From: a virus
Lineage: Duplodnaviria; Caudoviricetes
Reading direction: 5' to 3' (one strand)
Length of the DNA: 64,000 bases
IMG/VR virus record: IMGVR_UViG_3300028580_000062
Location: 9,428 to 73,427 of that record
Shown here in pieces: positions 999 to 38,132 of the stretch; the first letter of the stretch is position 1; every line of letters begins with the position of its first letter. Below the pieces are notes generated by a model. That model was not told the DNA's origin and searched no databases. It saw only the letters and a list, made by a program, of their open reading frames with translations. The translations under genes were made by a program, and so were the position numbers.

Positions 999-1132
999 GT
1001 TTTGTCTACAAATGATTATATACCAAAGAAATTCAAAGCCATTGATAGAATGTCAGTTGGATTTTATGCGTAAAAACTTAAAAAATCGCATTGTTAAATT
1101 TCGATTTTGTTGATATGATTTCAATGGAATAA

Positions 1133-1160
1133 TTGATTTGCAAGTGTTATGCTATATAAT
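1133..1160 (+). promoter_or_regulatory. sigma-A-like promoter of the ClC cassette
   Basis: TTGATT (1133-1138), 16 nt, TATAAT (1155-1160), then GGAG before ATG 1174. Confidence 0.5.
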
Positions 1161-1173
1161 ATTGGAGAATTGA

Positions 1174-2418: not shown

Positions 2419-2449
2419 TTGAATGAAATAATTACGAAAGACAGATTGC

Positions 2450-3289
2450 TCTGCAGTTGTGAGCTATATTGCTAATATTGAGTTCCTTGATCTTGGAGCA
2501 GTTTTCAAGCAGGAGCTTGAGGCCGGAAAGGCAGCCTTTCGCGAAATCAGAGACGACATCGCAGATGGCGCTTCCGGTGAAACGGCAGCGCAGAAGGTTA
2601 CGACCGAACTGGATAAACTGAAAGATAAATACATTACGATGTACTTTGAGGAGCATAAGAAAAAGCGCCTTGACATCGAGGATGCAAAGCGCCGTGGAAA
2701 ATTGCAGGAAAGTGTTGCACTGGCAAATCTGCGCAAGCTGCGTAGCATAGAGATCCTTTCAGGTGCAAAGCTGACTGCCATTGAACAGGATATGGCTGAT
2801 CTGAAGGTCTGTTATGAACTAACACCTGTTGAGTTGAAGACAAGTCACATTTGCCCTCACTGCCACTATACCTATGGCGACAAGGCAAAAAATGTAGCCG
2901 GGCAACTGGACAACATTGATATTCGCATGGATGATTTGGTGACGGAATGGACAAATACGCTGCTCAACACAATCTCTGACCCGATTGTGGTTAGCCAGAA
3001 GGAGTACTTGAGTGCGGAACAGCAGAAGGTCATCGATGAGTTTATTTCCACCAAAACACTGCCAAAGCATGTAGACGATCACTTCGTGAATAGCATCAAG
3101 GCGCTGCTTCAGGGCTTTGAGCCAGTGGTTATCGATACGGAGGATATAGTTGCAAAGCTGGATGAGCTTGGCCCTTGTGATGTGGCTACATTCAAGAACA
3201 AGCTGAATAGCATTGTGGAGTCTTATATCAAGGGAAAAGATGCAGCTAAACTGCGTATCGTAGTGAAGCGGAAAGATAGTGAGGTGTAA
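2450..3289 (+). pseudogene. brxC: BrxC/DUF6079 C-terminal fragment
   Basis: In-frame continuation of the 5' fragment; coiled-coil and CPHC zinc motif; ends 2 nt before pglXI start. Confidence 0.75.
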
Positions 3290-3291
3290 CG

Positions 3292-5792
3292 ATGGAACCA
3301 AGAAAATTAACGAAAGAGGATATCGACAAAGTTCGCGACATTGAGGGCTTTCCGATTGCCAAGGATGAAGATATCATTGCTCTTTCAAATGCACCGTTTT
3401 ATACGGCATGTCCTAATCCATTTATAGATGAATTCATCAGGGAAAATGGGACTCCTTACGATGAAGCAACGGATGACTATCATTGCGAGCCTTTTGCTGC
3501 GGATGTAAGTGAAGGTAAATATAATCCAGTGTATAGAATGCATCCTTATCATACAAAAGTTCCTCATGCGGCAATTGTTAAATATTTGGAGCATTACACG
3601 AAACCTGGTGACCTTGTTTTTGACGGTTTTTGCGGAACGGGGATGACTGGTGTTGCAGCTCAATTATGCGGAGAGGGTAGCCTTTTTCATCCAACTGAAC
3701 CACGGAAAGCGATTATTTGTGATATTTCTCCCGAAGCTACATTTATTTCTAACGCATACAACCAATCATATAGCTTCGATAAGGTTTTTAAAGAGGCTCA
3801 AAGACTTGCAGACGAATGTGAAAAAAAGTACGGTTGGATGTATAAGACAAAAGTCGACGGTACTGTATTGGCCAATGTAGACTCTTGCGTATGGTCTGAT
3901 GTTTTCATTTGTCCGCATTGTGGGCATGAGTTCGTCTTCTGGGATGAAGCCGTGGATGTTGAAAATGGGAAAATACCTACACAGTTTAGTTGCCAATCTT
4001 GTGGTGCTAAATTGAAAAAGAATGACTGTCAGCATGCGATTGAAATTTCATATGACAAAATAATAGGAGAGACAATCAAAACCTACAAGCAAATCCCAGT
4101 GTTTATCGGATATAGTGGTGCTGCACGCGGTACCAAAAAAACCGATGAATATGACCTCGATATTATCAAAAAGATAGAGGATACTCCGGTGGAAGGCTTT
4201 ATTCCAATCGCGATTATACCAAATGGAGAAAAGACTCAAGAAGCCATTACGCGTGGAATTACACGATCATATCAATTTTACTATAAACGTTCTCTTTTGG
4301 CATTAAGTTATCTCTGGACAAATGGTAGTTTGAGAATAAAAAGTATTGTCTCAAAGCTGTTATTTAGAATGACTAAGCGATATGCATTGACATATCAAAG
4401 TGGCACATGGGGCGCAGGAGGCGGCCCTACTCCAGGAACGCTTTATATACCATCGTTGGTGAAGGAACTGAACATTATCAATCAATTCAGAGATGCAGTT
4501 CGAGATTATTCAAAGGCTTACTCAAATTATTCCGAAGGAAATGTATTGATTACAACCCAAAGTTCAACTGCGGTTCCTCAGATTCCGGATAATACTATTG
4601 ATTATATTTTTACTGACCCTCCTTTTGGAAGCAATATCATGTATTCGGAACTGAATTTTATATGGGAATCTTGGCTTAATGTATTTACGAATGAAAAAAG
4701 GGAGGCGATTGTAAGCCAACTTCATGGAAAGAATCTTTTGGATTATCAACAGTTAATGTCAAATTGTTTTTTGGAGGACTGTAGGATTCTCAAGCCTGGT
4801 CGTTGGATTACTATTGAATTTCATAATTCAAAAAATGCTGTGTGGAATTCAATTCAGGAAGCAATACAATCTGCAGGATTTGTTGTGGCAGATGTCAGAG
4901 TTTTGGATAAAAAGCGAGATAGCTTTAACCAAGTAAAAGAAGCAAGTCAGGCAATAAAACAGGATTTGGTAATTTCAGCATATAAACCTATGGGCGAGTT
5001 TCGCAAAAAATTCTCTCAAGATATTGGTAGTGAGGAAACAGTGTGGGACTTTGTCCGGCAACATCTTGAAAAGGTACCAAAAGTCGTTATTCAGGATGAT
5101 AAAATAAAAATCGTAACAGAACGTCAAGCATATTTGCTTTACGACAGAATGGTGGCATATCATATCGTGCAAGGAATTGCTGTACCTATCGACTCTACAA
5201 GTTTTTTCAGGGGACTGGATAGCAGGTATTTGAAACGCGATGACATGTATTTCCTGCCAAACCAAGTAAACGAGTATGATAAAGCTCGAATCAAGGCGGA
5301 TGTTGAGCCTATCCAATTCAGTTCAGTTTATTTGTTACAAATGAAAAAACTGCAATTTCTTGGCTTTATCAACAACTTAGCGAAGATTTTGACGGGCCAC
5401 AGACATACGCACAGCTTCAGCCAAAGTTCATGCAGGAAGTAAAGTCAGTAGATCAATATGAATCTATGCCAGAGTTAGCTGTTCTTCTTGAAGAAAACTT
5501 CCTTCAGGATGAGAAGGGCCGCTGGTATATCCCTGATGTGACCAAAGAAGGTGACGTTACCAAACTGCGTGAGAAGAATCTCTGGAAAGAGTTCGAAGGT
5601 TATATGAGCAGCAAGGGCAAGCTCAAACTGTTCCGTTCCGAAGCAGTCCGTGTGGGCTTCTCTCGGCTGTGGAAGGACAAAAACTACAAGGCCATCGTGG
5701 ACATTGCAGAGCGTCTGCCGGAGCAGACAATTCAGGAGGATGCAAATCTCTTGATGTACTACGATATTAGCTTAGGTCGTATCAAAGATTGA
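3292..5792 (+). pseudogene. pglX: BREX type 3 DNA methyltransferase PglXI, frameshifted at 5317-5326
   Basis: DGFCGTG (motif I) and FTDPPFG (motif IV), CPHC/CQSC zinc motifs; TTCAG-TTCAG duplication; deleting 5 nt joins ORF 3292 to ORF 5430..5792 (QFSLFVTNEKTAISWLYQQL...). Confidence 0.85.
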
Positions 5793-5803
5793 GGTGAAGA
5801 GGA

Positions 5804-7552
5804 ATGCTGGAAATCGGCGATTTCGCTTTTGACACGCTGGAACAAGCGAATGTGCAGGTACTGGAGAAAATTGAAGTATGGGGCTATGTTTCCTACAAGG
5901 TTTTCAATCCGGCTACCGGCCATGTCTACAAAGCGACAGAAGAACAATTGAATTCAGAAGTCGGTAGCATTCGCTACGATGAGAATTATCTGCGATATGT
6001 TGTACAGCTTTCAAAAATCAAAAACGAGACCGCCGGAGGCTTCCTTTCGTCACTGGCAAGCGGTATTATCCCGTTGCCGCATCAGCTTCATGTGCTCAAT
6101 CGCGCAATGGAGACAAACAATATCCGCTATATTCTGGCGGACGAAGTTGGTCTCGGCAAAACGATCGAAGCCGGGATGATTGTCAAAGAACTGAAGAGCC
6201 GTGGACTTGTCAGCCGAGTACTTGTGGTTTGTCCGACCGGTCTTGTAACACAGCCGTTACTGGAAACCATTGATGCCATAATGAGCGATGACAAGACCCA
6301 GAAAATCATTATCTTCACGGAGTTTGTTGCCACACAGAAATATCTGCAGGAGCTTCTGACAAATCGCGGCTTCTCTGTTACGGTCTTAAACGGTAGCATG
6401 GATATCGAAGAACGAAACGAAGCTATGCAGGAATTCAAGAACAGTACCAGTATCTTTATTTCGACTGATGCTGGTGGGGAAGGTCTCAACCTTCAGTTTG
6501 CAAATATCATCGTCAACTATGATCTGCCTTGGAACCCGATGAAAATCGAGCAGCGCTGTGGTCGTGCAGACCGTATTGGCCAGCAGAGAGACGTACATAT
6601 TTATAACTTTATCGTTTCGGATACAGTGGAAAATCGTGTGCGTGAAGTGCTGGAAGAAAAGTTGTCTGTAATTTTGAAGGAAATGGGCGTAGATAAATAC
6701 TCCGATGTTTTAGACAGCGAAGTCGCTGAGTGTGATTTTACTGAGGTCTATATGCGTTCCGTTGGTCATCCGGGACAGGTTGAAAAGAATACCTATCCGG
6801 TTGAAGCCGAGATGAAGCAGCAGCTCGCCAATGCAAAGAAATATAAGGATGTTATCCGTGAAGAAAAGGATTTGACACGTCTGGTTGGAACAGAATCTGA
6901 TTTTGATGTGGATGTGGCCCTTCGTACCATGATGACCTATTATGAGTGCTGGAAAGGCAATGACCCTCGGCTGATTGACCGTATCAGTATTGGTGATGAA
7001 GAAATTACAAAACATTTGCGGACAGAAATTCTTCAGGATAGAACAAATCCGCTGCTTTCAGTGAGCATTGCTAATTTCCCCAATGAGGCCGGTTATTTTA
7101 TGTTGTGGGAGCTTTCTATATCTGATGATGAAAGCGGAAAGCGTATTATCCCCATCTTTGTAAATGATGATATGATTTTACGTCCGATGGCAGGAAAGCG
7201 TTTGATGGATGTTTTCCTTGATGGCACCAGTCGTTTGACGATTGGAACTGCTCCAAATATAAAGGCAGAGAAATATGAAAATCTTGAGAAGCTCAGCATG
7301 GAATTCGCTTATGATACCTTCATGGAATTGAAGGGGAAGCAACTGCAGCTGAATCAGGAAAGCTATAACAAATATATGTATGCTTTAAAGCTCCGGATGG
7401 AAGCTGCTGAGCATATCGGAATAGAAAATATCCGCCGAGGCCGATTGGCGAAGCTGGAAAAAGAGAAGGCCACCATTGAATCTGAGCATAAGAAAGGTAC
7501 ACAAGTGTATCCGGACTTCCGCTTGATGCTGGCAGTCAGATTGGAGGCATAA
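5804..7552 (+). pseudogene. brxHII: BrxHII-like SNF2 helicase with in-frame internal deletion
   Basis: Motif I ILADEVGLGKT and motif Ia VVCPTGLVTQ are joined directly to the C-lobe (KIIIFTEF, STDAGGEGLNLQ, EQRCGRADRIGQ); no DEAH or SAT motif. Confidence 0.75.
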
Positions 7553-7555
7553 CGC

Positions 7556-9010
7556 ATGTTTGGAGACTATGTGCTGAAACAGGCAGCAGCAGAATACAAC
7601 AATCGAATACTCCTTATAGATGACGAAGGACTGGATGAAGCAACTCATTACAGTGCTGACTTTCAGGCGCATGGCTTTGAAGTGGTGCATTATACAGATG
7701 ATTTGACTTTTCGAATTGAGTATGAGGGTAAGCTGAAAAGTACAAAGGACAAGTTGCTGGTACTTGCACATTCTAATAGCTATATTCCCTATGACCTTCA
7801 ACGAAGACTTCGGGCTTATATTGTTTCAATGGACAGACTGTTTCCAAAGTTGAATATTGAGGTTTTGAAATCACACAGGAACCTTGATCTGGAGCTTTTA
7901 TGCTTAGCATATTTGAAGAATTTCGACGATCTTCGTCAGCGCAAACAGACGGAGGACTTTATTCAGGAAAAGGTTGACAGCCCGGAAAATGTTGCCGCGT
8001 ATCTTGAACAGCTTGATATTGAATTGCAGCAGAAGCAGGAGCAAGTTAATTCATATCGTGATTGGTTTGCCATTGCAGAGATAAAGGCGAAGATTGATAC
8101 GCTTGCTACTGAGCACAAATTGAATGTTGACACTTCAGTCGTAAACAGAGTTTTTAAAGATTATGTTTTGGCGCAGTTTGGTAAGCTGTCCTCTGAAATG
8201 AGCCGGGAGACACCCGTGCTTGTTAGCCGTGCGATGGATTACATGCACGACCATAGCAGCAAATTTGTGATTATAGTAATGGATGGTATGTCAGAATTTG
8301 ACTGGAGGATTATCTCTAAGTCCTTTCAGAATGTTCAATATGAGCAGACAGCTGCGTTTGCTATGATTCCAAGCACCACGTCGATTTCACGGCAGTGCCT
8401 GTTATCAAATAAAACACCAGGTCAGCTGCTGGAGCCGTGGAAACAAAGCAAGGAAAAGCAGGAATTTGTGGCCTGTGCAAAATCAATGGGCTATACAGAT
8501 AATCAGATAGGTTATGAACGTGGTTACGAGGCGCAGTTTGGCTCCTTTGTAAAGTGTGGCGCGGTCATAATTAACGATGTCGATGATATGGTGCATGCGC
8601 AGCACCAAGGCCGTCTGGGAATGCTAAATGACATTGGTGTTCTCTCCGATCAGCATAAGCTGGTAGACATGACAAAGCGGTTTCTTTCAGAAGGTTTTGA
8701 TGTTTATATCTCTGCAGACCATGGAAACACGCCATGCACTGGACTTGGAAAATTAATGGGTACTGGAGTGGAAACAGAGACAAAGAGCCACAGAATGCTG
8801 GTGCTACAAAACTTTGCTGACAAAGCAGGACTCATACAAAAGTATGGAATGATAGAATATCCGAAATATTATCTGAATAAGGACTTCGATTATCTGATTT
8901 GTGATGTAGGAGACTCCTTTGATGCCAAGGGCGAGGAAGTCATGACGCACGGCGGCATATCAATTGACGAGGTCATAGTACCTTTTATCAAAATAAAGGC
9001 GGTAAAGTGA
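7556..9010 (+). CDS. pglZ: BREX alkaline-phosphatase-like PglZ
   Basis: VMDGMSEFDW, ISADHGN and THGGISIDEVIVPF motifs; operon context. Confidence 0.9.
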   Translation: MFGDYVLKQAAAEYNNRILLIDDEGLDEATHYSADFQAHGFEVVHYTDDLTFRIEYEGKLKSTKDKLLVLAHSNSYIPYDLQRRLRAYIVSMDRLFPKLNIEVLKSHRNLDLELLCLAYLKNFDDLRQRKQTEDFIQEKVDSPENVAAYLEQLDIELQQKQEQVNSYRDWFAIAEIKAKIDTLATEHKLNVDTSVVNRVFKDYVLAQFGKLSSEMSRETPVLVSRAMDYMHDHSSKFVIIVMDGMSEFDWRIISKSFQNVQYEQTAAFAMIPSTTSISRQCLLSNKTPGQLLEPWKQSKEKQEFVACAKSMGYTDNQIGYERGYEAQFGSFVKCGAVIINDVDDMVHAQHQGRLGMLNDIGVLSDQHKLVDMTKRFLSEGFDVYISADHGNTPCTGLGKLMGTGVETETKSHRMLVLQNFADKAGLIQKYGMIEYPKYYLNKDFDYLICDVGDSFDAKGEEVMTHGGISIDEVIVPFIKIKAVK

Positions 9011-9718
9011 ATGGCAAAGATGGTAGGCTTATCGAGAAACTTGAAACTATCATGGTTGAATCAAGCCGTGGAGTTGGTTTCGAGCGAGTTGACAGAGAAT
9101 GAAATAAAAGAAAAATTGAATGAATACTTGGGCTTTGAAATCGGGAGTCCCACAAATGTTCGTAAGACCAGAGAAATTCTAATGTGCATCTGGAGCTATG
9201 AAAATGAATATACAGAAAAATTAAGACCTACAGCACTCGAACTGATTAAGAAATATCCGGATTATGCGCTTGAAATTCACTGGAGCATGATGTTGGCGGC
9301 TTATCCGGTTTTTATGGATATGTGCAAACTTATCGGTAAAATGTCAGAGTTCCAGGATGAGATTACGCTGGCCCAACTGAAGCAGAAGCTGTTTGATGAG
9401 TGGGGAGAGCGTACGACACTATATCACTCCATTGACAAACTGGTATCCACACTAAAAGAGTTTGGAGTTCTCATTTGCGACAAACCCGGAAAATACCGAA
9501 TCAGTAAGCACAAGGTTGCAAGAGATGAGATCAGTAGTTTTTTGGTTTATACCATGATGAATGTGGATGACAGTGGATATTATTCTTTTCAAGAGCTGAA
9601 CGCCTCAACATATCTGTTCCCATTCGAATATCGAGTGACCAAGGAAACTTTGTTGCAGGATGATCGTTTCGTAATGAACAATTTCGGTGGAGAACTATCG
9701 ATAGCACTGAACAACTAA
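9011..9718 (+). CDS. brxA: BrxA-like protein (DUF1819)
   Basis: 235 aa, abuts pglZ stop; last gene of type 3 BREX order. Confidence 0.7.
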   Translation: MAKMVGLSRNLKLSWLNQAVELVSSELTENEIKEKLNEYLGFEIGSPTNVRKTREILMCIWSYENEYTEKLRPTALELIKKYPDYALEIHWSMMLAAYPVFMDMCKLIGKMSEFQDEITLAQLKQKLFDEWGERTTLYHSIDKLVSTLKEFGVLICDKPGKYRISKHKVARDEISSFLVYTMMNVDDSGYYSFQELNASTYLFPFEYRVTKETLLQDDRFVMNNFGGELSIALNN

Positions 9719-26769: not shown

Positions 26770-27291
26770 ATGGAAATTTGGAAAGATATACCTGGATATG
26801 AAGGAAGATATCAGGCAAGCACAGAGGGAAGAATCCGCAGTGTCTCTAGAATAATACAGGAGAAAAATATCAGTACAGGAAAGATTTATTATCACAACAT
26901 CAGTGGCCGAATATTAAAACCTGGTCGGTATTGTAAATCAGGACATTTATCAGTTGTACTTGGACATGGAGCGGATGGCAGCCCTGTACACCAACTTGTA
27001 ATGCGTACTTTTATTGGTGAACCACCGGTCGGTATGGAAGTATTACATAAGAATGGCAATCCAACTGATAATCAACTGTGCAATTTACATTATGGAACAC
27101 GAACTGAAAACATTCTTGATGTCTATCGACAAGGAGGAAAGTGGAGAAAACTTTCTGTTGATGATGTTGAAGCGATTAGATTTGGACTTTGGTGTGGAAT
27201 AAAAGGAGCAGAACTTTCTCGTATGTTTGATGTTGCTCCTATCTCTATTAGCCGCATTAAAAATGAAAGGACATTTGCATGGCTAGAATGA
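26770..27291 (+). CDS. Free-standing NUMOD4-HNH homing endonuclease
   Basis: WKDIPGYEGRYQASTEGRIRS (NUMOD4); VHQLV...VLHKNGNPTDNQLCNLHYGTRTEN (HNH). Confidence 0.9.
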   Translation: MEIWKDIPGYEGRYQASTEGRIRSVSRIIQEKNISTGKIYYHNISGRILKPGRYCKSGHLSVVLGHGADGSPVHQLVMRTFIGEPPVGMEVLHKNGNPTDNQLCNLHYGTRTENILDVYRQGGKWRKLSVDDVEAIRFGLWCGIKGAELSRMFDVAPISISRIKNERTFAWLE

Positions 27292-30182
27292 AAAATCTCA
27301 ATTTAGATCTGGAGACATTTTCGGATGTCGATCTTGCAAAATGTGGCGTATATAAATACGCCAGTTCACCAGCGTTCCAAATCCTGCTGTTTGGATACTC
27401 GGTCGATCATGGACCAGTGGTAACTGTAGACTTGGCATGCGGAGAGGAACTGCCAGAAGAGATCCTTGCAGCATTGACTGATCAATCCGTCGTCAAATGG
27501 GCATTCAACTGTATGTTCGAGAGGATCTGTATCTCGACCTACTTACGCAAACACTATCCTGAACACTTCACAACTTATAGCATTCCTGAAGATACGGTTC
27601 GCAACTATCTAGACCCAGCATCCTGGCATTGCTCAATGGTATGGTCTGCCTATCGTGGCTTGCCGCTGTCGCTTGCTTCAGTTGGTGCGGTGCTCGGATT
27701 AGAGGATCAGAAGATGACAGAAGGGAAGGATTTGATCCGTTTCTTCTGTATGCCACGTAAGTCGGATGGAGGTAGGAATCTTCCATTGGATGCACCGGAT
27801 AAATGGGCGGTCTTTAAGTCCTATAACATCAGGGATGTAGAAGTGGAAATCAGCATCCAGGAACGATTGCAGAAGTTTCCTGTTCCTGAGAGTGTCTGGA
27901 AGGAATATGCAATCGACCAGGAAATCAATGATCGAGGCGTCAGGGTTGATATGAAGCTGGTAAAGAATGCCATTGCGATTGATGAGCTAACTCACAATAA
28001 GTTGATGGATCAACTCACGACCATTACTGGCCTACAGAATCCTAACTCGGTCCAACAGATGAAAGAGTACCTGGCAACGAATGGCCTCGTCATGGATACC
28101 CTAGGAAAGAAGGCAGTGCGTGAAATGGTCAAGACAGCACCAGAAGACATGAAGACGGTTCTGGAGTTGCGCCAAGAGACTGCAAAGTCATCCATCAAGA
28201 AGTTCCAAACGATGGAGCGTGCAGCTTGCAGTGATGATCGAGTTCGCGGGATGTTCCAGTTCTTTGGGGCTCCACGTACCGGTCGCTTTGCCGGCAGACT
28301 GGTCCAGCTTCAGAATCTGAAGCGGAATGATATGCCAGATTTAGCGGAGGCCCGAGCACTGGTCAAGGAAGGTAACTATGAAGCGTTGGAACTGCTCTAT
28401 GACTCAGTGCCTGAGGTCCTATCGGAATTGATCCGGACGGCATTGATTCCAAAGCCAGGATATAAGTTCTATGTTGCTGACTACTCCGCAGTTGAAGCCA
28501 GATGTCTTTCTTTCCTTGCCAAAGAACAATGGCGGATAGATTCCTTTGCGGCCAATAAGGATATCTATTGCGAAACTGCCAGCCGTATGTTTGGAGTTCC
28601 AGTAGTGAAGCATGGCATCAATGGTGAGCTGCGACAGAAAGGAAAGCAGGCAGAACTTGCATGCATTGCTGAAGGCCAGCTTGTCCTCACAGATCATGGA
28701 CTGGTACCTATTGAAAAGGTCACAACAGAAATGGGGGTCTTTGATGGTGAGGAGTTCGTGCACCATGAAGGCGTTGTTTACAAAGGAGAACGAGAGGTAA
28801 TGACATATGAAGGACTTACAGCAACCCCAGACCATTACGTGTGGGTCGAAGGGAAACAGGAGCCAATACAGCTTGGAGTCGCCGCCACCTGCGGCGCACA
28901 TCTCGTACAGTCCGGAGATGGTAGGAACCCATTACGGCTGGATAGAGATCATCAGCCCGGAGAAGCGCTGGAACAAGAAATGGAATCATTGTTATGTGCT
29001 AACAAAGTGTCATGGGTGCGGCAGTATCCAATGGCAGATATTAGACAGTTTGAGAAGCGGAAAATCAAAAGGATGTCAGCATTGTTCTCAACCGAGACTG
29101 GCACCGGCATGGTTGTACAAAAGATTGACAGCAGCAAAGCAACGCTGCACAAATCCAAGAAATCCGCTGTATCAAGATTATGGAAATCGAGGCATCAAAT
29201 TCGAGTTTTCCAGCATCAACGAAGCCTGCCAGTATTTGATGACAGAGCTTGGAATTCCAGAACGAGAAATGGAATTAGATCGAATCGACACAAACGGAAA
29301 CTATGCTCGTGGGAATCTTCGCTTTGTTACAAGAGAGGAGAACCAGTCGAATCGAAGATTGACGGTTCTGTCAGAGTTTGCCCAGGAGTATTGGCCATAC
29401 AGCAGATCAGTTGTAACAAGGAAACTGTCAGAAGGTATGTCTCGAGATCAAATAATTCTCGAAGCACAAAAAGCAGTAATCGAAAAACGGAAGCACTGGC
29501 ACATCATCTCGGCAAGGCTAGACTTTATGACATTCGAAATGCCGGACCACATCACCGTTTTACCGTATCGGGACATCTAGTTCATAACTGCGGCTACGGA
29601 GGGTCAAAAGGCGCACTTATTGCAATGGGTGCGTTGGACCAGGGACTCGATGAATCGGAATTACAACCGCTGGTTGATGCTTGGAGAGCCACCAATCCGA
29701 AGATTGTTGCTTTCTGGTGGGAAGTGGATGAAGCAATCAAGAAAGCAGTGCGTTATAAGACAACAACGGAGACACATGGCCTGAAGTTTATTTGCCAGTC
29801 TGGGATGTTGTTTATTCAGCTGCCATCTGGCCGGTCACTCTCCTACGTGAAGCCAAGAATCGGTGTAAATCAGTTTGGCTCGGATTGTGTTACGTATATG
29901 GGCTTGGATTCCACAAAGCACTGGAGCAGGGTGGAAAGCTATGGTCCCAAGTTTGTCGAAAATATCACCCAGGCAATCTGCCGGGATATCTTGTGCTATG
30001 CAATGCAGACATTACAGTTCTGCTTTATCTGTGCCCATGTCCATGATGAATTGATCATTGAGTGCAAGGAAGAGGTATCCCTGGATGAGATCTGCAAACT
30101 GATGGGCAGGACGCCGCCTTGGATACCAGGTCTTTTGTTACGTGCCGATGGTTATACCTGTGACTTTTATCAAAAAGATTGA
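27288..30182 (+). CDS. Phage family A DNA polymerase containing an intein
   Basis: LDLETFS exonuclease, ADYSAVEAR (motif A), KQAELA|CGYGG (motif B), HVHDE (motif C); about 655 aa after splicing. Confidence 0.92.
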   Translation: MKNLNLDLETFSDVDLAKCGVYKYASSPAFQILLFGYSVDHGPVVTVDLACGEELPEEILAALTDQSVVKWAFNCMFERICISTYLRKHYPEHFTTYSIPEDTVRNYLDPASWHCSMVWSAYRGLPLSLASVGAVLGLEDQKMTEGKDLIRFFCMPRKSDGGRNLPLDAPDKWAVFKSYNIRDVEVEISIQERLQKFPVPESVWKEYAIDQEINDRGVRVDMKLVKNAIAIDELTHNKLMDQLTTITGLQNPNSVQQMKEYLATNGLVMDTLGKKAVREMVKTAPEDMKTVLELRQETAKSSIKKFQTMERAACSDDRVRGMFQFFGAPRTGRFAGRLVQLQNLKRNDMPDLAEARALVKEGNYEALELLYDSVPEVLSELIRTALIPKPGYKFYVADYSAVEARCLSFLAKEQWRIDSFAANKDIYCETASRMFGVPVVKHGINGELRQKGKQAELACIAEGQLVLTDHGLVPIEKVTTEMGVFDGEEFVHHEGVVYKGEREVMTYEGLTATPDHYVWVEGKQEPIQLGVAATCGAHLVQSGDGRNPLRLDRDHQPGEALEQEMESLLCANKVSWVRQYPMADIRQFEKRKIKRMSALFSTETGTGMVVQKIDSSKATLHKSKKSAVSRLWKSRHQIRVFQHQRSLPVFDDRAWNSRTRNGIRSNRHKRKLCSWESSLCYKRGEPVESKIDGSVRVCPGVLAIQQISCNKETVRRYVSRSNNSRSTKSSNRKTEALAHHLGKARLYDIRNAGPHHRFTVSGHLVHNCGYGGSKGALIAMGALDQGLDESELQPLVDAWRATNPKIVAFWWEVDEAIKKAVRYKTTTETHGLKFICQSGMLFIQLPSGRSLSYVKPRIGVNQFGSDCVTYMGLDSTKHWSRVESYGPKFVENITQAICRDILCYAMQTLQFCFICAHVHDELIIECKEEVSLDEICKLMGRTPPWIPGLLLRADGYTCDFYQKD
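28662..29588 (+). mobile_element. Class 1 intein (309 aa) in PolA motif B
   Basis: Block A CIAEGQLVLT, block B TPDH, block F RLYDIRNAGPHHRF, block G VHN followed by Cys+1. Confidence 0.93.
28807..29580 (+). CDS. HNH homing endonuclease overprinted in the +1 frame inside the intein
   Basis: CHGCG/CQHC zinc motif, KQRCTNP...YGNRGI, LDRIDTNGNYARGNLRFVTREENQSNRR; GAGGT (28794-28798) 8 nt before ATG 28807. Confidence 0.88.
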   Translation: MKDLQQPQTITCGSKGNRSQYSLESPPPAAHISYSPEMVGTHYGWIEIISPEKRWNKKWNHCYVLTKCHGCGSIQWQILDSLRSGKSKGCQHCSQPRLAPAWLYKRLTAAKQRCTNPRNPLYQDYGNRGIKFEFSSINEACQYLMTELGIPEREMELDRIDTNGNYARGNLRFVTREENQSNRRLTVLSEFAQEYWPYSRSVVTRKLSEGMSRDQIILEAQKAVIEKRKHWHIISARLDFMTFEMPDHITVLPYRDI

Positions 30183-30991: not shown

Positions 30992-33370
30992 ATGCGTGAT
31001 TTAAAAATAGCATATGGAAATTCCAGGCAGGCAAAGTTCTGGTCCAATAAGACGATTACCTTTGAAGAACTGAAGGATAGGTTAAGGATACCAATCAGGA
31101 CTTCAGAAACGACGGCTGAATACATGTCCCTTCAGAAAACACAAAGAGATGGTATCAAGGATAAAGGTGGCTTTGTGGCCGGGCACCTTCGGGATAACAG
31201 AAGGAAGGTGGATCACGTAGATTGTCGGTCCATGGTAGTGTATGACATTGACTTTGCTACGCCTGAGTTCATTCAGGATATCAAGGCGAAGGTTCCGTAT
31301 GTTGGCTGTGCTTATTCAACGCACAGCCATATGCCGGAGAAACCACGTGTCAGGGCAATCCTCCCGGCAGCAAGGGACATGACACCCGATGAACATAATG
31401 CAATAGCAAGGTTTGTTGCAGCGGACATGGGAATCATTGATATGATCGACCCATGTTCTTTTGAACCGCATCAGCTGATGTACTGGCCATCCTGCCCGTC
31501 TGATGGGGAGTATCTCTTTATCGAGTTAGATGGTGATGTCATTGATCCCGACAAGATTCTCTCAGCACATCCTAATTGGCGGGACTGTTCATTGCTTCCT
31601 ACGACACCAAAGGAAAGCACTGCGAAAAAAGATCCTGGGAAGAAGCAGCAGGACCCATTGGCAAAGAATGGTGCAGTCGGATATTTCTGCAGACTGTTCA
31701 CCATAGAAGATGCAATTGCGAGGTTCTTATCTGATATCTATGAGCCTGTAGCAAATATGTCTGGAAGATACACTTATATCCCCGGCGAGAGTGCTGCAGG
31801 TCTTGTCGTATACGAGAATGGAACGTTTGCATATTCCCACCATGCAACTGACCCAGCTTTTGGGAAGCTGTTAAATGCATTTGATCTGGTCCGTGTTCAT
31901 AAGTTTCCAGATGCAGAGGACAAGCAGAGCTATAAGGATATGGCGGACTTTGTTATGTCGCTGCCGGAGATCAAGATGCTGGCGACAAAGGAAAAGCTCG
32001 AAGAAGCCCAGAAGACTTTCGGGGAGACCAATAGTGCAGAAACCGATGATACCTGGAAAGGCAGCCTGCAGTATATGTCACGCAGCACGGTCTTGCAGAA
32101 TAGTGTCTGGAACGAAATGCTGATCCTAAATAATGATCCTGATTGTCAGGGCTTTGCATATAACGAAATGGCAAACCGTGTCCAGGTGACTGGAAAGGTG
32201 CCGTGGGATAGGCCAACCGACAACAAGTTCTGGCGTGATGCTGATACAGCTCAGCTTAAGGCTATGATCGATATTCGCTATGTTTGCTTCTCAGACAGAA
32301 ACCATAATGTTGCTTTTACGAAGGTGGCTGACGACCGCCGGTTTCACCCGGTCAGGAATTATCTGAATGCACTGCCCGCGTGGGATGGCATTAAGCGTGT
32401 CGACGATCTTTTCATTAAGAGGTTGTCGGCAGACGACACCAACTATGTCAAAGCAGTCACCCGGAAAACCTTAGTAGCGGCCGTGGCCCGCATCTACCAC
32501 CCTGGGACAAAGTTCGATACGGTCCTGGTCTTAGATGGTGATCAGGGTATCGGTAAAAGTACCATGTGGAAGTCCTTAGCTGGCGATGAGTATTTCTCGG
32601 ATGCACTGTCCCTTACTGATATGGATGACAAATCAGGAGCTGAAAAGCTGCAGGGATTCTGGATCATCGAGATCGGCGAGCTGGCTGGAATGAAAAGGGC
32701 TGACATTGAAAAGGTGAAGTCGTTTATGTCCACCTCTGATGACAAATACCGTCCGAGCTATGGCAAGGTGGTCGAAAGCCATCCGCGCCAGTGCATCGTG
32801 GTAGCTACGGTAAATGGCGAGCGCGGGTACCTTCGTGACATTACAGGCAATCGCCGGTTCTGGATTGTGAAGTGCCGGCAGATTGAGAAAATGGTCAAGT
32901 GGAAGCTCAGCAGTGAAGAGCGTGACCAGATCTGGGCTGAGGTCAAGTATTACTACGAACAGGGCGAGAAGCTCTATCTTGAAGGCAATCTCCTGGAAGA
33001 TGCTGAAGAGGCACAACGTGGTGCGATGGAAGCAGATGAGCGTCAGGGCATGGTTGGGGAGTATCTGTCAAAGCTCCTGCCAGAAAACTGGAACGATATG
33101 GATCTTTATCAACGTCGGAATTTTCTGGATGGTGATGACCTTATTAAAAAGGAAGGCACTGTTCCAAGGCAGACCGTTAGCAATGCGGAGATCTGGTGCG
33201 AATGTTTCAAGCGGAATCTCGCTGACATGAAGCCGACCGATTCCTATGCGATAGCGGCTTTGATGACACAGGTCGATGGCTGGGAGAGGACATCCCATCG
33301 GATGCGGCTTCCTATCTATGGTCAGCAACGGATGTATGTAAATGCAGCCCATAACACCAAGAACTGGTGA
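30992..33370 (+). CDS. Primase-helicase of the VirE (virulence-associated E) family
   Basis: N-terminal prim-pol-like YSTHSH..PRVR; GDQGIGKST Walker A, EIGEL, TGNRRFW. Confidence 0.9.
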   Translation: MRDLKIAYGNSRQAKFWSNKTITFEELKDRLRIPIRTSETTAEYMSLQKTQRDGIKDKGGFVAGHLRDNRRKVDHVDCRSMVVYDIDFATPEFIQDIKAKVPYVGCAYSTHSHMPEKPRVRAILPAARDMTPDEHNAIARFVAADMGIIDMIDPCSFEPHQLMYWPSCPSDGEYLFIELDGDVIDPDKILSAHPNWRDCSLLPTTPKESTAKKDPGKKQQDPLAKNGAVGYFCRLFTIEDAIARFLSDIYEPVANMSGRYTYIPGESAAGLVVYENGTFAYSHHATDPAFGKLLNAFDLVRVHKFPDAEDKQSYKDMADFVMSLPEIKMLATKEKLEEAQKTFGETNSAETDDTWKGSLQYMSRSTVLQNSVWNEMLILNNDPDCQGFAYNEMANRVQVTGKVPWDRPTDNKFWRDADTAQLKAMIDIRYVCFSDRNHNVAFTKVADDRRFHPVRNYLNALPAWDGIKRVDDLFIKRLSADDTNYVKAVTRKTLVAAVARIYHPGTKFDTVLVLDGDQGIGKSTMWKSLAGDEYFSDALSLTDMDDKSGAEKLQGFWIIEIGELAGMKRADIEKVKSFMSTSDDKYRPSYGKVVESHPRQCIVVATVNGERGYLRDITGNRRFWIVKCRQIEKMVKWKLSSEERDQIWAEVKYYYEQGEKLYLEGNLLEDAEEAQRGAMEADERQGMVGEYLSKLLPENWNDMDLYQRRNFLDGDDLIKKEGTVPRQTVSNAEIWCECFKRNLADMKPTDSYAIAALMTQVDGWERTSHRMRLPIYGQQRMYVNAAHNTKNW

Positions 33371-33375
33371 CAGCA

Positions 33376-33803
33376 TGTGAGACAGTGACAGCATTTCCCC
33401 TTATATTTACTTTTGGTAAAAATCAAGGAGAGTAGAAAACTCACCTGCACACACGCGCGTAGGTATATATAGGAAAAAGCTGTCATTTTGTCCTCACCGT
33501 CACACGGGCTGATGACAAGATGTGAGACAGTGACAGCATTTCCCCTTATATTTACTTTTGGTAAAAATCAAGGAGAGTAGAAAACTCACCTGCACACACG
33601 CGCGTAGGTATATATAGGAAAAAGCTGTCATTCTGTCCTCACCGTCACAATGGGAGGAACAAAATGACAAGGTGTGAGACAGTGACAGCATTTCCCCTTA
33701 TATTTACTTTTGGTAAAAATCAAGAAGAGTAGAGATAGATGCACGTACACACACGCGTAGGTATATATAGGGAATAGCTGTCATTCTGTCATCACCCGTC
33801 ACA
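33376..33803 (+). repeat. Three tandem ~145-152-bp origin-like units
   Basis: Units start TGTGAGACAGTGACAGC at 33376, 33521, 33673 and end GCTGTCATT(T/C)TGTC...CCGTCACA; AT-rich core. Confidence 0.9.
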
Positions 33804-34617: not shown

Positions 34618-36002
34618 TGTTAGATAGAGATGCATTGCATGACTATCAGAAATACAGTGTGAAGTTTGTTGAAGAACATCCAGCCGCAATCCTGATCCAA
34701 CAAATGGGTCTCGGCAAAACGATCAGCAGTTTAACATCGACATTAGATCTGATGTTCGATTCCTTCGAGGTCCACAAAACTTTAGTGATTGCACCACTAC
34801 GAGTAGCTCGTGATGTCTGGCCGCAGGAGTGCAGAGAGAATTGGTCACATACACGGTTCATGACGATGTCCGTTGTAGTGGGAGATGCCAAAGCAAGAGT
34901 GGCAGCACTAGAATTACCAGCAGACATCTATGTGGTAAATCGAGAGAACATCAAGTGGCTGGTCGAGTATTACGAGAAGAAGCATCAACCATGGCCATTC
35001 GATTGCTGCATCATTGATGAGCTGAGTTCCTTCAAGAATTATCGGTCACAGCGATTCCGGTATCTGAAAAAGGTGCGGCCATTCATGAAGAGGGTTGTGG
35101 GTTTAACAGGAACACCAGCATCCAATGGACTTCTTGATCTCTGGGGTGAGGTTGCAATTATCGATCAAGGAAAACGTCTTGGTAAGTTTATCGGAAGGTA
35201 CAGAGAAGCCTATTTCAAACCAGGTGATATGAATCCATACACTGGCATTGTTTATAACTATGTTCCACTGCCTGGTGCAGAGGAAGCGATCTATGACAAG
35301 ATCAGCGATATCAGTGTCAGTATGAAGTCTAAAGATTATCTGCCAGATATGCCTGAGTGTGTGACAGTCAATCATTCAGTTGAAATGAGCCCAGCAGAAA
35401 GAAAGCTGTATGACGAATTTGAAGCACAGATGGTTCTTAGCCTTGATGGTCAGAGTATCGATGCGGCAAATGCAGCAGTTCTGTCTGGTCGGTTGTTGGA
35501 AATGGCCAATGGAGCAGTTTATAACGAAAGCCATGAAGTTGTTCAGATCCATGAACGGAAGTTAGAGATGCTTGCGGATCTCGTGGAAGAGGCTGTTGGT
35601 CAGAATGTCCTGATTGCCTATTGGTATAAACATGATCGATCACGAATCATCGAGTACTTATCCAAACTGGGCTATGCAGTCAGAGATTTGAAGACGTCAG
35701 ACGATATTGCGGATTGGGATGCAGGAAAGATCCCGATTGCACTGATCTCACCAGCCAGTGCAGGTCATGGTTTGAATCTTCAGCATGGTGGTCATATCTT
35801 GATCTGGTTCTCCCTGTGCTGGTCACTAGAAATGCGGCAGCAGACTGATGCCAGACTAAATCGGCAAGGACAGACAGAAACAGTCACTATCCACAATATC
35901 ATTTGCAAAGATACCATTGATGAGGATGTGTTGAAGGCATTGGAGCATAAAGAGGCTACACAAGAGAATCTGATCCAGGCTGTAAGGGCACATCTGAAAT
36001 AA
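34617..36002 (+). CDS. SNF2-family phage helicase
   Basis: QMGLGKT, IIDELSSFK, GLTGTP, SAGHGLNLQ, ARLNRQGQ. Confidence 0.92.
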   Translation: MLDRDALHDYQKYSVKFVEEHPAAILIQQMGLGKTISSLTSTLDLMFDSFEVHKTLVIAPLRVARDVWPQECRENWSHTRFMTMSVVVGDAKARVAALELPADIYVVNRENIKWLVEYYEKKHQPWPFDCCIIDELSSFKNYRSQRFRYLKKVRPFMKRVVGLTGTPASNGLLDLWGEVAIIDQGKRLGKFIGRYREAYFKPGDMNPYTGIVYNYVPLPGAEEAIYDKISDISVSMKSKDYLPDMPECVTVNHSVEMSPAERKLYDEFEAQMVLSLDGQSIDAANAAVLSGRLLEMANGAVYNESHEVVQIHERKLEMLADLVEEAVGQNVLIAYWYKHDRSRIIEYLSKLGYAVRDLKTSDDIADWDAGKIPIALISPASAGHGLNLQHGGHILIWFSLCWSLEMRQQTDARLNRQGQTETVTIHNIICKDTIDEDVLKALEHKEATQENLIQAVRAHLK

Positions 36003-36049
36003 AGACAACATATGCCAATCCGAGGGATCAATCATGCGGAGGGAAGCAT

Positions 36050-36283
36050 ATGCAACAGGAAAATTTTGAACCATATATCAATTTGGCGAATGCAATCGTC
36101 AAAGAGGCAGCGAAAGAATATGTTTCAGCACTTCGAAAGCTAAAGCGGAATCGTGGGAATCAAGCCGCGATGAAAGAAGCGATGGAACTGGAGCAGTTCT
36201 TTTACTCACCGGACTTTGCAACACTAACCTCCCTTAATCCGGATTATCTAATCCAGAAACTAAGAGAGAAGGTGTGCAAATGA
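36050..36283 (+). CDS. Conserved phage hypothetical protein
   Basis: LANAIVKEAAKEY...LEQFFYS; GGAGG RBS. Confidence 0.75.
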   Translation: MQQENFEPYINLANAIVKEAAKEYVSALRKLKRNRGNQAAMKEAMELEQFFYSPDFATLTSLNPDYLIQKLREKVCK

Positions 36284-36750
36284 CACCGAAGTCATATTTG
36301 AATCAAGCATATCGATTAGAGCAGCGTATCCGCCTGGATAAAGAAGAGATAGAGCAGCTCCAGGCACTGTCAGTGAATGTATCGAGTCCTAGCTTTGAAG
36401 AGCACTATAATCCAAATCGAAATACCGAAGCATCGTTCATGAAGACCTTGGAGAAGGTTTGGAAGTACCAGGAACAGTTGAATCAAGAGTTAGATCTTCT
36501 TATGAGTTTGAAGATGGAGATTCAGTCGGTGATTGCTAGCGTGGATAATGTGGATGAACGACTGGTTCTGACCTATCGTTACATCAAGAACTACACGTGG
36601 ACCAGGATTGGTGATGAGATGATGGCAGATGAAAGAACAGTCCGCAGATGGCATAACAGGGCTTTGGCACATGTGGTACTGCCTGAAAATCCAACAATTA
36701 TTGAAATCCGCCGGAAATGTCCGCAAATGTCCAACAATACCCGCATTTGA
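36280..36750 (+). CDS. DUF1492/ArpU-RinA-like late transcriptional activator
   Basis: KSYLNQAYRLEQRI; C-terminal HTH YTWTRIGDEMMADERTVRRWHNRAL. Confidence 0.8.
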   Translation: MTPKSYLNQAYRLEQRIRLDKEEIEQLQALSVNVSSPSFEEHYNPNRNTEASFMKTLEKVWKYQEQLNQELDLLMSLKMEIQSVIASVDNVDERLVLTYRYIKNYTWTRIGDEMMADERTVRRWHNRALAHVVLPENPTIIEIRRKCPQMSNNTRI

Positions 36751-36775
36751 TGTGTGCTATGGTATAGTCGACAAG
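36702..36775 (+). promoter_or_regulatory. Late-promoter-like region, copy 1
   Basis: TGAAATCCGCCGGAAATGTCCGCAAATGTCC (36702-36732) with AAATGTCC iterons, then TGTGCTATGGTATAGTC. Confidence 0.6.
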
Positions 36776-36785
36776 AATCAGAGAG

Positions 36786-37090
36786 AGATGATTGCCTCAA
36801 CACATGAAGTGTAGTGGCTTAGTTGTCGAAAAGACGACCGCCACAACACATGAAGTGTAGCGGCTGAGTTGTCGGAAAGACGACCGCCACAACACATGAA
36901 GTGTAGTGCCTGAGTTGTCGAAAAGATGACTGCCTCAACACATGAAGTGTAGCGGCTGAGTTGTCGAAAAGACGACCGCCACAACATATGAAGTGTAGCG
37001 GCTGAGTTGTCGAAAAGACGATGGCCTCAACACATGAAGTGTAGTGGCTTAGTTGTTGAAAAGATGATCGCCACAACACTTGAAGTGTAG
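36786..37090 (+). repeat. Tandem array of 6 full + 1 partial 46-bp degenerate repeats
   Basis: Units start at 36786, 36832, 36878, 36924, 36970, 37016, 37062; consensus AGAYGAYYGCCWCAACACATGAAGTGTAGYGGCTKAGTTGTCGAAA. Confidence 0.97.
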
Positions 37091-37105
37091 AGCATATGTA
37101 GAAAA

Positions 37106-37170
37106 TGAAATCCGCCGGAAATGTCCGCAAATGTCCGGATTGCATATGTGCTATGTTAAAGTCAGCAAGA
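37106..37170 (+). promoter_or_regulatory. Late-promoter-like region, copy 2
   Basis: Identical 31-mer at 37106-37136, then TGTGCTATGTTAAAGTC, RBS GGAGG and the HNH start. Confidence 0.65.
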
Positions 37171-37183
37171 ACCGGAGGGAAGC

Positions 37184-37549
37184 ATGCCATACAAACCGTA
37201 TGTTCCCTGCAGGCACCCAGGCTGCAGTGCACTGGTACCTCCAGGGCAGAAGTATTGTGAAGCACACAAGCCACTGCACCCAGAGGAAGTACGTGCTGCA
37301 TCCAAGCGTGGATACAACGCACGGTGGGAGAAGGAAAGCAAACGGTTCTTGGTTGAGCATCCACTCTGTGTCAGATGCATGAGAAAGAATCCACCAAGGT
37401 ATGTCAAAGCAACAGTTGTGGATCATATCATTCCTCATCGCGGTGATCCAACCCTGTTCTGGGATGAATCGAACTGGCAACCTCTGTGCAAGAAGTGTCA
37501 TGATCAAAAAACAAGAAATGAAGAAGGAACACCAACGTATCACTATTGA
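37184..37549 (+). CDS. Terminase-associated HNH endonuclease (HK97 gp74-like)
   Basis: CVRC...VVDHIIPHRG...NWQPLCKKCHDQKT. Confidence 0.92.
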   Translation: MPYKPYVPCRHPGCSALVPPGQKYCEAHKPLHPEEVRAASKRGYNARWEKESKRFLVEHPLCVRCMRKNPPRYVKATVVDHIIPHRGDPTLFWDESNWQPLCKKCHDQKTRNEEGTPTYHY

Positions 37550-37640
37550 TGAGGCCGGGGTTAAATCTCTGGATGAAATTAGCCTTTTGACCGTCGCCCC
37601 CTCTCGCGTTAAAAATCGCGAAATTGTGAGGGGTGGGGTC
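37550..37640 (+). other. Candidate cos/packaging-site region
   Basis: GC-rich GACCGTCGCCCCCTC (37589-37603) and CGCG-N8-CGCG just downstream of the packaging HNH, where cos lies in HK97-like phages. Confidence 0.35.
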
Positions 37641-37826
37641 TGGCTGGCCGGCAACAATACCGCAAAATGTACAGCCAGGGCTGAAAAAATGCGGTAACAG
37701 CGTGAGATTTGAAAATTGAATACATTTCATGACGGCAGTGATGGGACAAAATCCATCGCTGTCTTTTTATGTGGGTTCTGTTTTGAGTTTCGTGGACAAC
37801 CGGAAGTTTCGTGGACAGGAGGATAC

Positions 37827-38132
37827 ATGGATCAGGAATATGAATCTCCAGATCTTTCAGAGTTTATCGCCGCCTGTGCGAAAGCGTTCTGTCCGGAGTG
37901 TGGAAAACCAATCGTACAAAACAGCAACGGCCGGCCGAAGAGCTTCTGCTCAAACCGATGCCGCTGGGCATTTCACAAAAGAATGGAACGCCGGAAGGCG
38001 AAGGAGGAACTAAATGAAAACAGCAGAGTTGAAAGTGCTGCCGGTGGCGAGCTTGAAGCCAGCGGAATACAATCCGAGAAAGAAACTGAAACCAGGAGAC
38101 AAGGAATATCAGAAGATCAAAGACTCGATTGA
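37827..38132 (+). CDS. Zinc-ribbon protein
   Basis: CPECGK...FCSNRCR; GGAGG RBS; overlaps the methylase start by 119 nt. Confidence 0.6.
   Translation: MDQEYESPDLSEFIAACAKAFCPECGKPIVQNSNGRPKSFCSNRCRWAFHKRMERRKAKEELNENSRVESAAGGELEASGIQSEKETETRRQGISEDQRLD

Follow-up and report, generated by a model that had tools for sequence, protein, structure and literature searches.

A lineage-specific tandem repeat between two predicted late promoters of a gut or wastewater phage, possibly derived from a leader terminator

What is a tandem array of 46-nt foldable units doing between the late activator gene of a phage and the first gene that follows, and where did it come from? The array lies in a window of 64,000 nucleotides, bases 9428-73427 of a 73.4-kb IMG/VR virus record (IMGVR_UViG_3300028580_000062). 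An earlier note on this DNA had taken it for a candidate array of structured RNAs, a late-expressed decoy against an abortive-infection system or a protein sponge. The account that we favour, at about even confidence, is that a leader-terminator module decayed and became a variable-number repeat peculiar to this lineage. Flanked by duplicated Ltr promoters, P1 and P2, the array would be transcribed from P1 as a non-coding leader with little or no effect in cis.

The array and its late-control setting

The array occupies positions 36786-37095, where a 46-nt unit is repeated 6.6-6.7 times head to tail without spacers and at 89% match. Tandem Repeats Finder gives a period of 46, 6.5 copies, 89% matches and 0 indels (score 461) at 36794-37090, as well as a higher-order period of 138 nt at 36786-37090, and the same 46-nt spacing was returned by a separate repeat search. 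Together with the unit alignment, these results bear out the spacerless array with scattered substitutions that the earlier note had described. In the register GAYGAYN-GCCWCAACACWTGAAGTGTAGYGSC-TKAGTTGTCGAAAA (GAYGAYN GCCWC...GAAAA) the array at 36787-37095 holds 6.72 units. Each unit contains a hairpin (hairpin 1, GCCWC AACAC / GTGT AGYGSC) and contributes to a second (hairpin 2, GTTGTC GAAAA GAYGAY) that spans the unit junction. Counts of the core motifs are 7 and 6 in the array and zero in the rest of the 64 kb, against an expectation of 0.3-0.5 from shuffled sequences. The units are about 11% divergent from one another. Among the 14 distinct units compared, 30 of the 46 positions are invariant and the remainder are recurrent two-state polymorphisms, the variation being spread over the whole unit.

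Several readings of the repeat were set aside. A CRISPR array or an RNA anti-CRISPR repeat was rejected because spacers are absent, the variation extends over the whole unit, and there is no Rfam CRISPR-DR match. The Chi-like AGCGG in the unit is replaced by AGTGG throughout other arrays. Mimicry of an Ltr box by GAAGTGTAG, which matches at 6 of 9 positions only, was given no weight.

No ORF is conserved at the array on either strand. A coding repeat would be either a minus-strand protein with 46-aa repeats or a plus-strand minigene, ATG AAG TGT AGY GGC TGA, in each unit. The consensus unit is indeed stop-free in all minus-strand frames, and a minus-strand ORF of 181 aa (36819-37364) crosses the array. 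However, this ORF is antisense to the HNH gene and P2, and the frame shifts with copy number, and the minigene lacks a ribosome-binding site, its stop codon being abolished by the TTA variants. The minus-strand frames are broken at different places in every relative, which contradicts a coding repeat, and we regard this reading as extremely improbable.

Table 1. Coordinates of the features discussed, in window positions
Feature	Position	Strand	Remarks
BrxC, in two pieces	4-1110 and 2459-3286		Pieces separated by a 414-aa ORF
PglX	3292-5439		BREX-type cluster
BrxH-like helicase	5804-7549		BREX-type cluster
Short PglZ	7556-9007		BREX-type cluster
BrxA	9011-9715		BREX-type cluster
Ltr-type late transcriptional activator gene	36274-36750	+	158 aa; last codons overlap P1 boxes
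Ltr box set of P1	36702-36732	+	31-nt element; 10-bp direct repeats AAATGTCC, then a third, degenerate box
Extended -10 of P1, TGGTATAGT	36760-36768	+	Read from sequence; element conserved in 16 distinct relatives
Purine-rich P1 leader before unit 1	36769-36786	+	Colinear with the 20-30-nt leader of relatives
46-nt tandem array	36787-37095	+	6.7 units; hairpin 1 and junction-spanning hairpin 2 per unit
Ltr box set of P2	37106-37136	+	Exact copy of 36702-36732
Extended -10 of P2, TGTTAAAGT	37144-37152	+	Read from sequence; ~30 nt before HNH start codon
HNH endonuclease gene	37184-37549	+	First gene after the array; Pfam HNH 1.6e-10, phrog_144 1.8e-37
Strong intrinsic terminator after HNH	37734-37763	+	12-bp stem, -17 kcal/mol, T-run

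The gene upstream of the array matches Pfam Sigma70_r4 (1.7e-5) and DUF1492 (2.7e-5) as well as the transcriptional regulator family phrog_36 (3.1e-24). The 31-nt box element occurs in exactly two copies, at 36702 and 37106, and nowhere else in the window (Table 1). Phages in which this was tested have their Ltr binding sites in front of the late promoter, in the form of short direct repeats directly distal to the ltr gene (PMC3753634). The window has the layout of such an Ltr-dependent promoter, with an activator gene, distal AAATGTCC repeats at 10-bp spacing, and packaging genes downstream. That the array stands behind a late promoter, as proposed before, is borne out by the 31-nt boxes after the Sigma70_r4/DUF1492 gene and the extended -10 that follows them. 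Boxes and extended -10 are conserved distal to the activator gene in about 30 relatives.

The array is thus bracketed by two predicted late promoters. Transcription from P1 would start near 36775. The first unit lies about 18 nt past the end of the P1 -10. With the -10 of an intact late-promoter copy some 12-20 nt ahead of it, the array is very probably transcribed late. There is no hairpin between the -10 of P2 and the HNH start codon.

The first gene after the array encodes an HNH endonuclease, a gene type that accompanies terminases in cos-type phages. As the earlier note stated, no toxin gene follows, and the ToxN domain is absent from the record. The terminator after the HNH gene, also found in the relative L057, is the only canonical one between the ltr gene and the remaining late genes in the array lineage. 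Downstream of it are a ParB-N methyltransferase gene, an amidoligase-like gene, small ORFs, terS (41270) and terL. The TerL protein shares 76% identity with its counterpart in Clostridium phage NatCom_42228, a 'Ca. Heliusvirales' phage that comes from human faeces and has the same HNH...methylase...terS layout as the window.

The late-control regions of phages with Ltr proteins (RinA, ArpU, LtrA/Sigma70_r4, LtrB/DUF1492, LtrC) share several traits with this locus. The activator gene ends the replication module, the repeats lie distal to it, the late promoter precedes the packaging genes, and a terminator, here in the relatives, stands between the ltr gene and the late genes (PMC3753634, PMC3152322). 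The window differs in having two box-promoter units with a 46-nt array filling the space between them, and in having its canonical terminator after the HNH gene and none before it.

Two further observations concern the start of the late region. The 280-nt non-coding gap 3' of the HNH gene (37550-37830) contains G-rich tracts and the terminator, as well as two 13-nt direct repeats AGTTTCGTGGACA (37786, 37805) directly before the next gene. It might include the cos site, or else a second promoter or operator. In NatCom_42228 (L069, PV036444.1 29300-31800) a peptidase gene and a MazF-like growth-inhibitor annotation are found upstream of the HNH gene. In the group comprising NatCom_42228 and the window phage, the late region seems to begin with a hotspot for cargo genes.

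Copy number and distribution among relatives

We retrieved 35 viral contigs encoding the activator for comparison. Near relatives carry 1.7, 3.7, 4.7 or 6.7 copies of the unit, on contigs from at least eight metagenomes. The array has 4.7 copies in L004 and 6.7 in L005, where it is identical to the window array. A scan of metagenomes for the motif and a look-up of exact HNH proteins yielded arrays of 3.7 copies in L054, L057 and L071, 1.7 copies in L059 and 6.7 copies in L070. L075 has at least 3 copies, its contig ending inside the array. All array-bearing relatives share P1, the leader, the terminal partial unit and P2. The P1 leader is conserved in all array-bearing contigs, and a near-consensus extended -10 of P1 is kept in every one of them.

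Among the 35 activator-encoding contigs, the array is absent from all relatives with an Ltr identity below 90%. It is also missing from L074, a wastewater contig that encodes an identical HNH protein behind a single promoter. This promoter has a P2-type -10 and leader with different boxes, and neither an array nor a hairpin is present. Since L074 has the same HNH protein without P1 and the array, both are dispensable. Comparison of L074:1-130 with window positions 36650-37183 shows that the Ltr boxes of L074 differ (GGGAATGTCACAAGATGTCC), so the boxes appear to travel with the activator gene, with a recombination joint right at the boxes.

Two patterns among the relatives were considered and discounted. 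The identity of the arrays in the window and L005 might be read as a sign of selection. However, these phages are a mosaic of blocks that are 100% and 82-95% identical, and the identity is uninformative because the array falls in a 100% block. The contigs L072, L073 and L076 end 78 nt before the HNH gene, which might suggest physical genome ends; these are most likely assembler breaks at the 31-nt repeat.

Searches beyond this group returned nothing comparable. The array region had 0 blastn matches in 50,697 phage records and 72,556 plasmids, and a core-motif scan of viral contigs found two close relatives and no others. The same scan over 185,579 bacterial species genomes, in which only near-exact matches are detectable, gave 9 single chance matches and 0 arrays. 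In metagenome contigs the scan found three more arrays, all of the same lineage, the rest being chance matches. A covariance model of the unit, run over 298 kb of relatives, matched the arrays themselves and nothing else. The array is confined to one narrow phage lineage.

Folding of the unit and the leader terminator of distant relatives

RNAfold predicts two hairpins for one unit (-16.5 kcal/mol, z = -3.4), exactly those that had been drawn from the letters. The minus strand of one unit folds as well as the plus strand, at -17.1 kcal/mol. The folding z of the whole array reaches -7.3 for the plus and -5.6 for the minus strand; both strands fold well because tandem palindromes are self-complementary.

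Across the 14 distinct units, 91% of cells in the two-hairpin model pair. However, a covariation test of this model found 0 compensatory pairs, and shuffled controls score alike. In hairpin 1, pair 9-31 is lost in 5 of the 14 units and pair 11-29 in 7, and the stability of this hairpin across units ranges from -4.3 to -12.5 kcal/mol. An H-type pseudoknot, put forward as an alternative fold, is pairable in 84-91% of cells, but it also lacks compensatory change and some of its pairs are broken. The frequent C/T sites in hairpin 2 (GAYGAY) present a different picture. As had been noticed before, the variants of the GTTGTC/GAYGAY stem stay G-U compatible, and all of them keep G-U pairing on the plus strand. 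These polymorphisms are the one hint of constraint at the level of the RNA.

The equal folding of the two strands (-16.5 versus -17.1 kcal/mol) is also what might be expected if the array acted as DNA. It could then be a protein-binding array: a set of operators, a terminase site (cos or pac), an origin of replication, or a site for partition. In each unit, the 13-bp palindrome ACACTTGAAGTGT or the inverted repeat GTYGTC...GACGAC might be bound by a dimeric protein. Every unit has two inverted repeats, the T variant is a perfect 6-1-6 palindrome, and HNH and terminase genes lie downstream. However, HNH phages have their cos sites between HNH and terS, whereas the array precedes HNH and is separated from terS by 4 kb. 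It is missing in L074, which has the same HNH protein, and so it is in every relative whose Ltr is less than 90% identical. The rest of the window is free of the motif, units spaced at 46 bp do not keep helical phase, and a 145-bp repeat by the primase-helicase gene is a better candidate for an origin. We consider a DNA-level role for the array quite improbable.

In 16 distinct, more distant relatives, whose activators are 50-74% identical, the boxes and extended -10 are followed by a purine-rich leader of 20-30 nt, a hairpin, a T-run, a ribosome-binding site and the HNH gene. The element consists of a GCCTC...GGGGC hairpin and then TTTTCTT, about 25 nt past the single promoter. RNAalifold on this hairpin gives 10 pairs, with compensatory changes in 4 of the 10, and most of the stems have energies of -15 to -24 kcal/mol. 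By its sequence, the promoter-proximal hairpin of the relatives fits the definition of an intrinsic terminator, conserved just 3' of the late promoter. Examples of this layout among the relatives L006-L038 are L006:3474-3542, L020:2688-2748 and L035:3484-3548.

The first hairpin of the array occupies the same position as the terminator of these relatives. In an alignment, the P1 leader and unit 1 are colinear with the relatives' terminator module. They share the distance from the -10, an AGATGA-type leader tail, the GCCTC start of the 5' arm and the GGC end of the 3' arm, and TT-AGTTGT in the unit stands where the relatives have TTTTCTTGT. A covariance model of the relatives' module, applied to P1 and unit 1, gave a full-length colinear match that was not significant (6.3 bits, E 0.76). 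The position and the short motifs suggest that the unit descends from the leader-terminator module; given so low a covariance score, this is a suggestion from position and not proof. P1 itself resembles the three-box, terminator-bearing promoter type (L018), and P2 resembles the terminator-less type of L074.

The units fall short of the definition of an intrinsic terminator, with stems of -4.3 to -12.5 kcal/mol and a tail of TTAGTTGT or TGAGTTGT. In a terminator scan no array unit passed, and none was found between the array and the HNH gene. These results bear on whether the array is a cis insulator under selection, a series of weak terminators that would block read-through from the ltr (middle) operon until Ltr activates P2, with the copy number tuned by selection. 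The ancestral element at this position is a terminator, and units of the form GCCAC...GTGGC-TTAGTTGT keep a stem of -12 kcal/mol, and 5 of the 8 bases that follow it are T. The interval from ltr to HNH contains no other terminator, and work on RinA phages inferred one between the ltr gene and the late genes (PMC3152322). However, 0 units pass the standard terminator scan, L074 has neither terminator nor array before HNH, the strong terminator 3' of HNH already insulates the rest of the operon, and a form with 1.7 copies occurs in nature. An insulator maintained by selection seems to us unlikely, though the least so of the rival readings.

Origin of the array and its possible roles

The account we favour, a decayed and amplified leader terminator, starts from the layout of the distant relatives. 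The ancestor would have had an Ltr-dependent late promoter, a strong intrinsic terminator within about 25 nt, and the HNH gene. In the array lineage the box region is duplicated, and this probably came about when a promoter with a terminator and one without recombined unequally at their Ltr boxes. The product would carry P1 with the old leader upstream and P2 directly before HNH. Recombination at the shared boxes between phages of the P1 type and the P2 type would produce exactly the order P1-leader-hairpin-P2-HNH, and the 1.7 copies of L059 are close to this minimal state.

With P2 serving the late genes, the terminator left between the two promoters could have decayed: the stem would have lost strength, and the T-run would have been broken up (TTAGTTGT). 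Slippage or unequal crossing-over may afterwards have raised and lowered the copy number of this 46-nt module. Under this account each unit would be composed of a purine-rich leader tail, a hairpin that was once the terminator stem, and a remnant of the U-tract. Hairpin 2 would then form where the U-tract remnant of a unit meets the purine tail of the unit that follows, a pairing like that of the A-tract with the U-tract in a terminator.

During infection, accumulation of Ltr would cause P1 to fire, and the array would be made as a hairpin-rich untranslated leader running into P2 and HNH, with P2 supplying the productive late transcripts. Worn terminators may stop or pause some polymerases, so that short non-coding RNAs would arise and read-through from the ltr operon would be somewhat reduced. 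If the array hairpins are worn leader terminators, any activity would be modest and in cis, or absent. From the sequence we infer transcription from P1, descent of the unit from a terminator module and leaky termination. The activity of P1, the read-through and the 3' ends of the transcripts are predicted on the same basis. The array edges are conserved across many samples, and together with the 30 of 46 invariant positions this could reflect selection rather than concerted evolution. A view of the array as a neutral relic does not explain the near-consensus extended -10 of P1 in every array-bearing contig.

The proposal of the earlier note, an antitoxin mimic or decoy, has to be weighed against this account. 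P1 would produce a repeat RNA whose hairpins or pseudoknot titrate an RNA-binding defence protein of the host, for example a type III toxin like CptN or ToxN. In its most far-reaching form, 46-nt units would be cut out late in infection and bind a host defence protein that is guided or inhibited by RNA, such as a CptN-like type III toxin of gut Clostridia. More copies would give more protection, and the copy series would reflect an arms race by repeat expansion, like the one that pseudo-ToxI of PhiTE went through in the laboratory. The source of the decoy would be the leader hairpin of the phage itself and not a host.

Type III loci consist of repeats, a palindromic terminator and then the gene of an endoribonuclease toxin; the repeats are 31-62 nt long and occur in 1.9-5.6 copies, those of cptIN are 40-48 nt, and the cptIN hosts are gut Firmicutes (PMC3401426). 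The period of 46 nt is within both the cptIN (40-48) and the toxIN (31-62) ranges, and the nearest cultured phage infects Clostridium from human faeces. The array is non-coding and foldable, is predicted to be promoter-driven, and lies in a slot after the late promoter that carries methyltransferase cargo. The repeat of E. rectale CptI is 45 nt long and is cut by CptN at a GA/AAG junction (PMC4627078), which the GA/AAAG loop of the unit recalls. In addition, the natural series of 1.7-6.7 copies parallels the expansion of pseudo-ToxI in phage PhiTE, from 1.5 repeats in the wild type to 4.5 or 5.5 in escape mutants (PMC3475682).

However, no terminator or toxin gene follows the array, and PF13958 (ToxN) is absent from the record. 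The search for type III antitoxin families in Rfam that had been proposed as a check gave no match. At E<=10 over 36000-38000, Rfam 15 returned two rows, both chance lncRNA matches outside the array. The unit has no visible similarity to the E. rectale CptI repeat (PMC4627078). Searches suited to near-exact matches found no like array in 185,579 species genomes, in plasmids or phages, or in viral contigs outside the lineage. The close relative L074 does without the array, and nothing frees the array RNA from the late mRNA.

Known antitoxin repeats are near-identical, and each is a pseudoknot that is processed and bound by the toxin. The array units diverge by about 11%, several of their substitutions break pairs, and their stability varies widely. 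They also occupy the leader-terminator position of the relatives, which suggests a local origin and not the capture of a host antitoxin. Of the late decoy or sponge, what stands is that the array is non-coding, very probably transcribed late and foldable. The function as an antitoxin mimic or sponge is not supported, given the missing type III layout, Rfam match and compensation. We judge the decoy reading improbable.

Comparison with the two known systems leads to the same points. Like ToxI, CptI and TenpI arrays, the array is a predicted promoter-driven series of non-coding tandem repeats with a similar unit length, a pseudoknot that can be drawn and an A-rich candidate cut site. It differs in its heterogeneous units, in lacking both a terminator or toxin gene behind it and any match by sequence or in Rfam, and in that it would be co-transcribed with the late genes. 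Its copy numbers of 1.7-6.7 reach above the 5.6 reported for type III arrays (PMC3401426). Like the pseudo-ToxI of PhiTE, it is a phage-borne repeat without a toxin whose copy number varies, probably via slippage (PMC3475682). However, pseudo-ToxI is close to a known host antitoxin and its effect on ToxIN was shown by experiment (PMC3475682), whereas the unit in the window resembles the phage's own leader. If the decoy reading were true, the arrays would for the first time show, as a series from natural populations, how an RNA counter-defence evolves through expansion of its repeats.

Should the decayed-terminator account be correct, the locus would be a small natural example of change in a phage control region, in which recombination at activator boxes duplicates a promoter and frees a terminator to decay and to expand as a variable-number repeat. 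This would be useful for annotating uncultured gut phages, and a promoter with tandem hairpins would by itself not be evidence of an antitoxin-like RNA.

The late operon of lambdoid phages has a promoter-proximal terminator, in the order PR', 6S RNA, tR'. The relatives of the window phage are similar in that the late promoter is followed by a terminator within tens of nucleotides, the default product being a short leader RNA. The array occupies the leader position, but the lambda leader is single-copy and not a tandem array. As a terminator stands right after the late promoter of the relatives, their late transcripts must read through it. To our knowledge, no Q-type antiterminator has been shown for Ltr phages. 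By analogy with lambda, the layout of the relatives hints that Ltr proteins may confer Q-like antitermination. A puzzling gap of >155 bp separates the RinA site from the mapped terS start (PMC3152322), and the promoter-proximal terminator of the relatives might bear on it.

Three observations were made elsewhere on the record. A BREX-type defence cluster lies at 4-9715 (Table 1), and the record therefore holds host or island DNA besides the phage. A 257-aa ORF in another frame (28807-29580) is located inside a 967-aa polymerase-like ORF (27279-30182). Finally, three copies of a 145-bp unit are found at 33363-33803, between a 792-aa primase/helicase-like ORF and the next gene. L002 and L005 have three copies of it as well and L003 has two, and this repeat is likely the replication origin.
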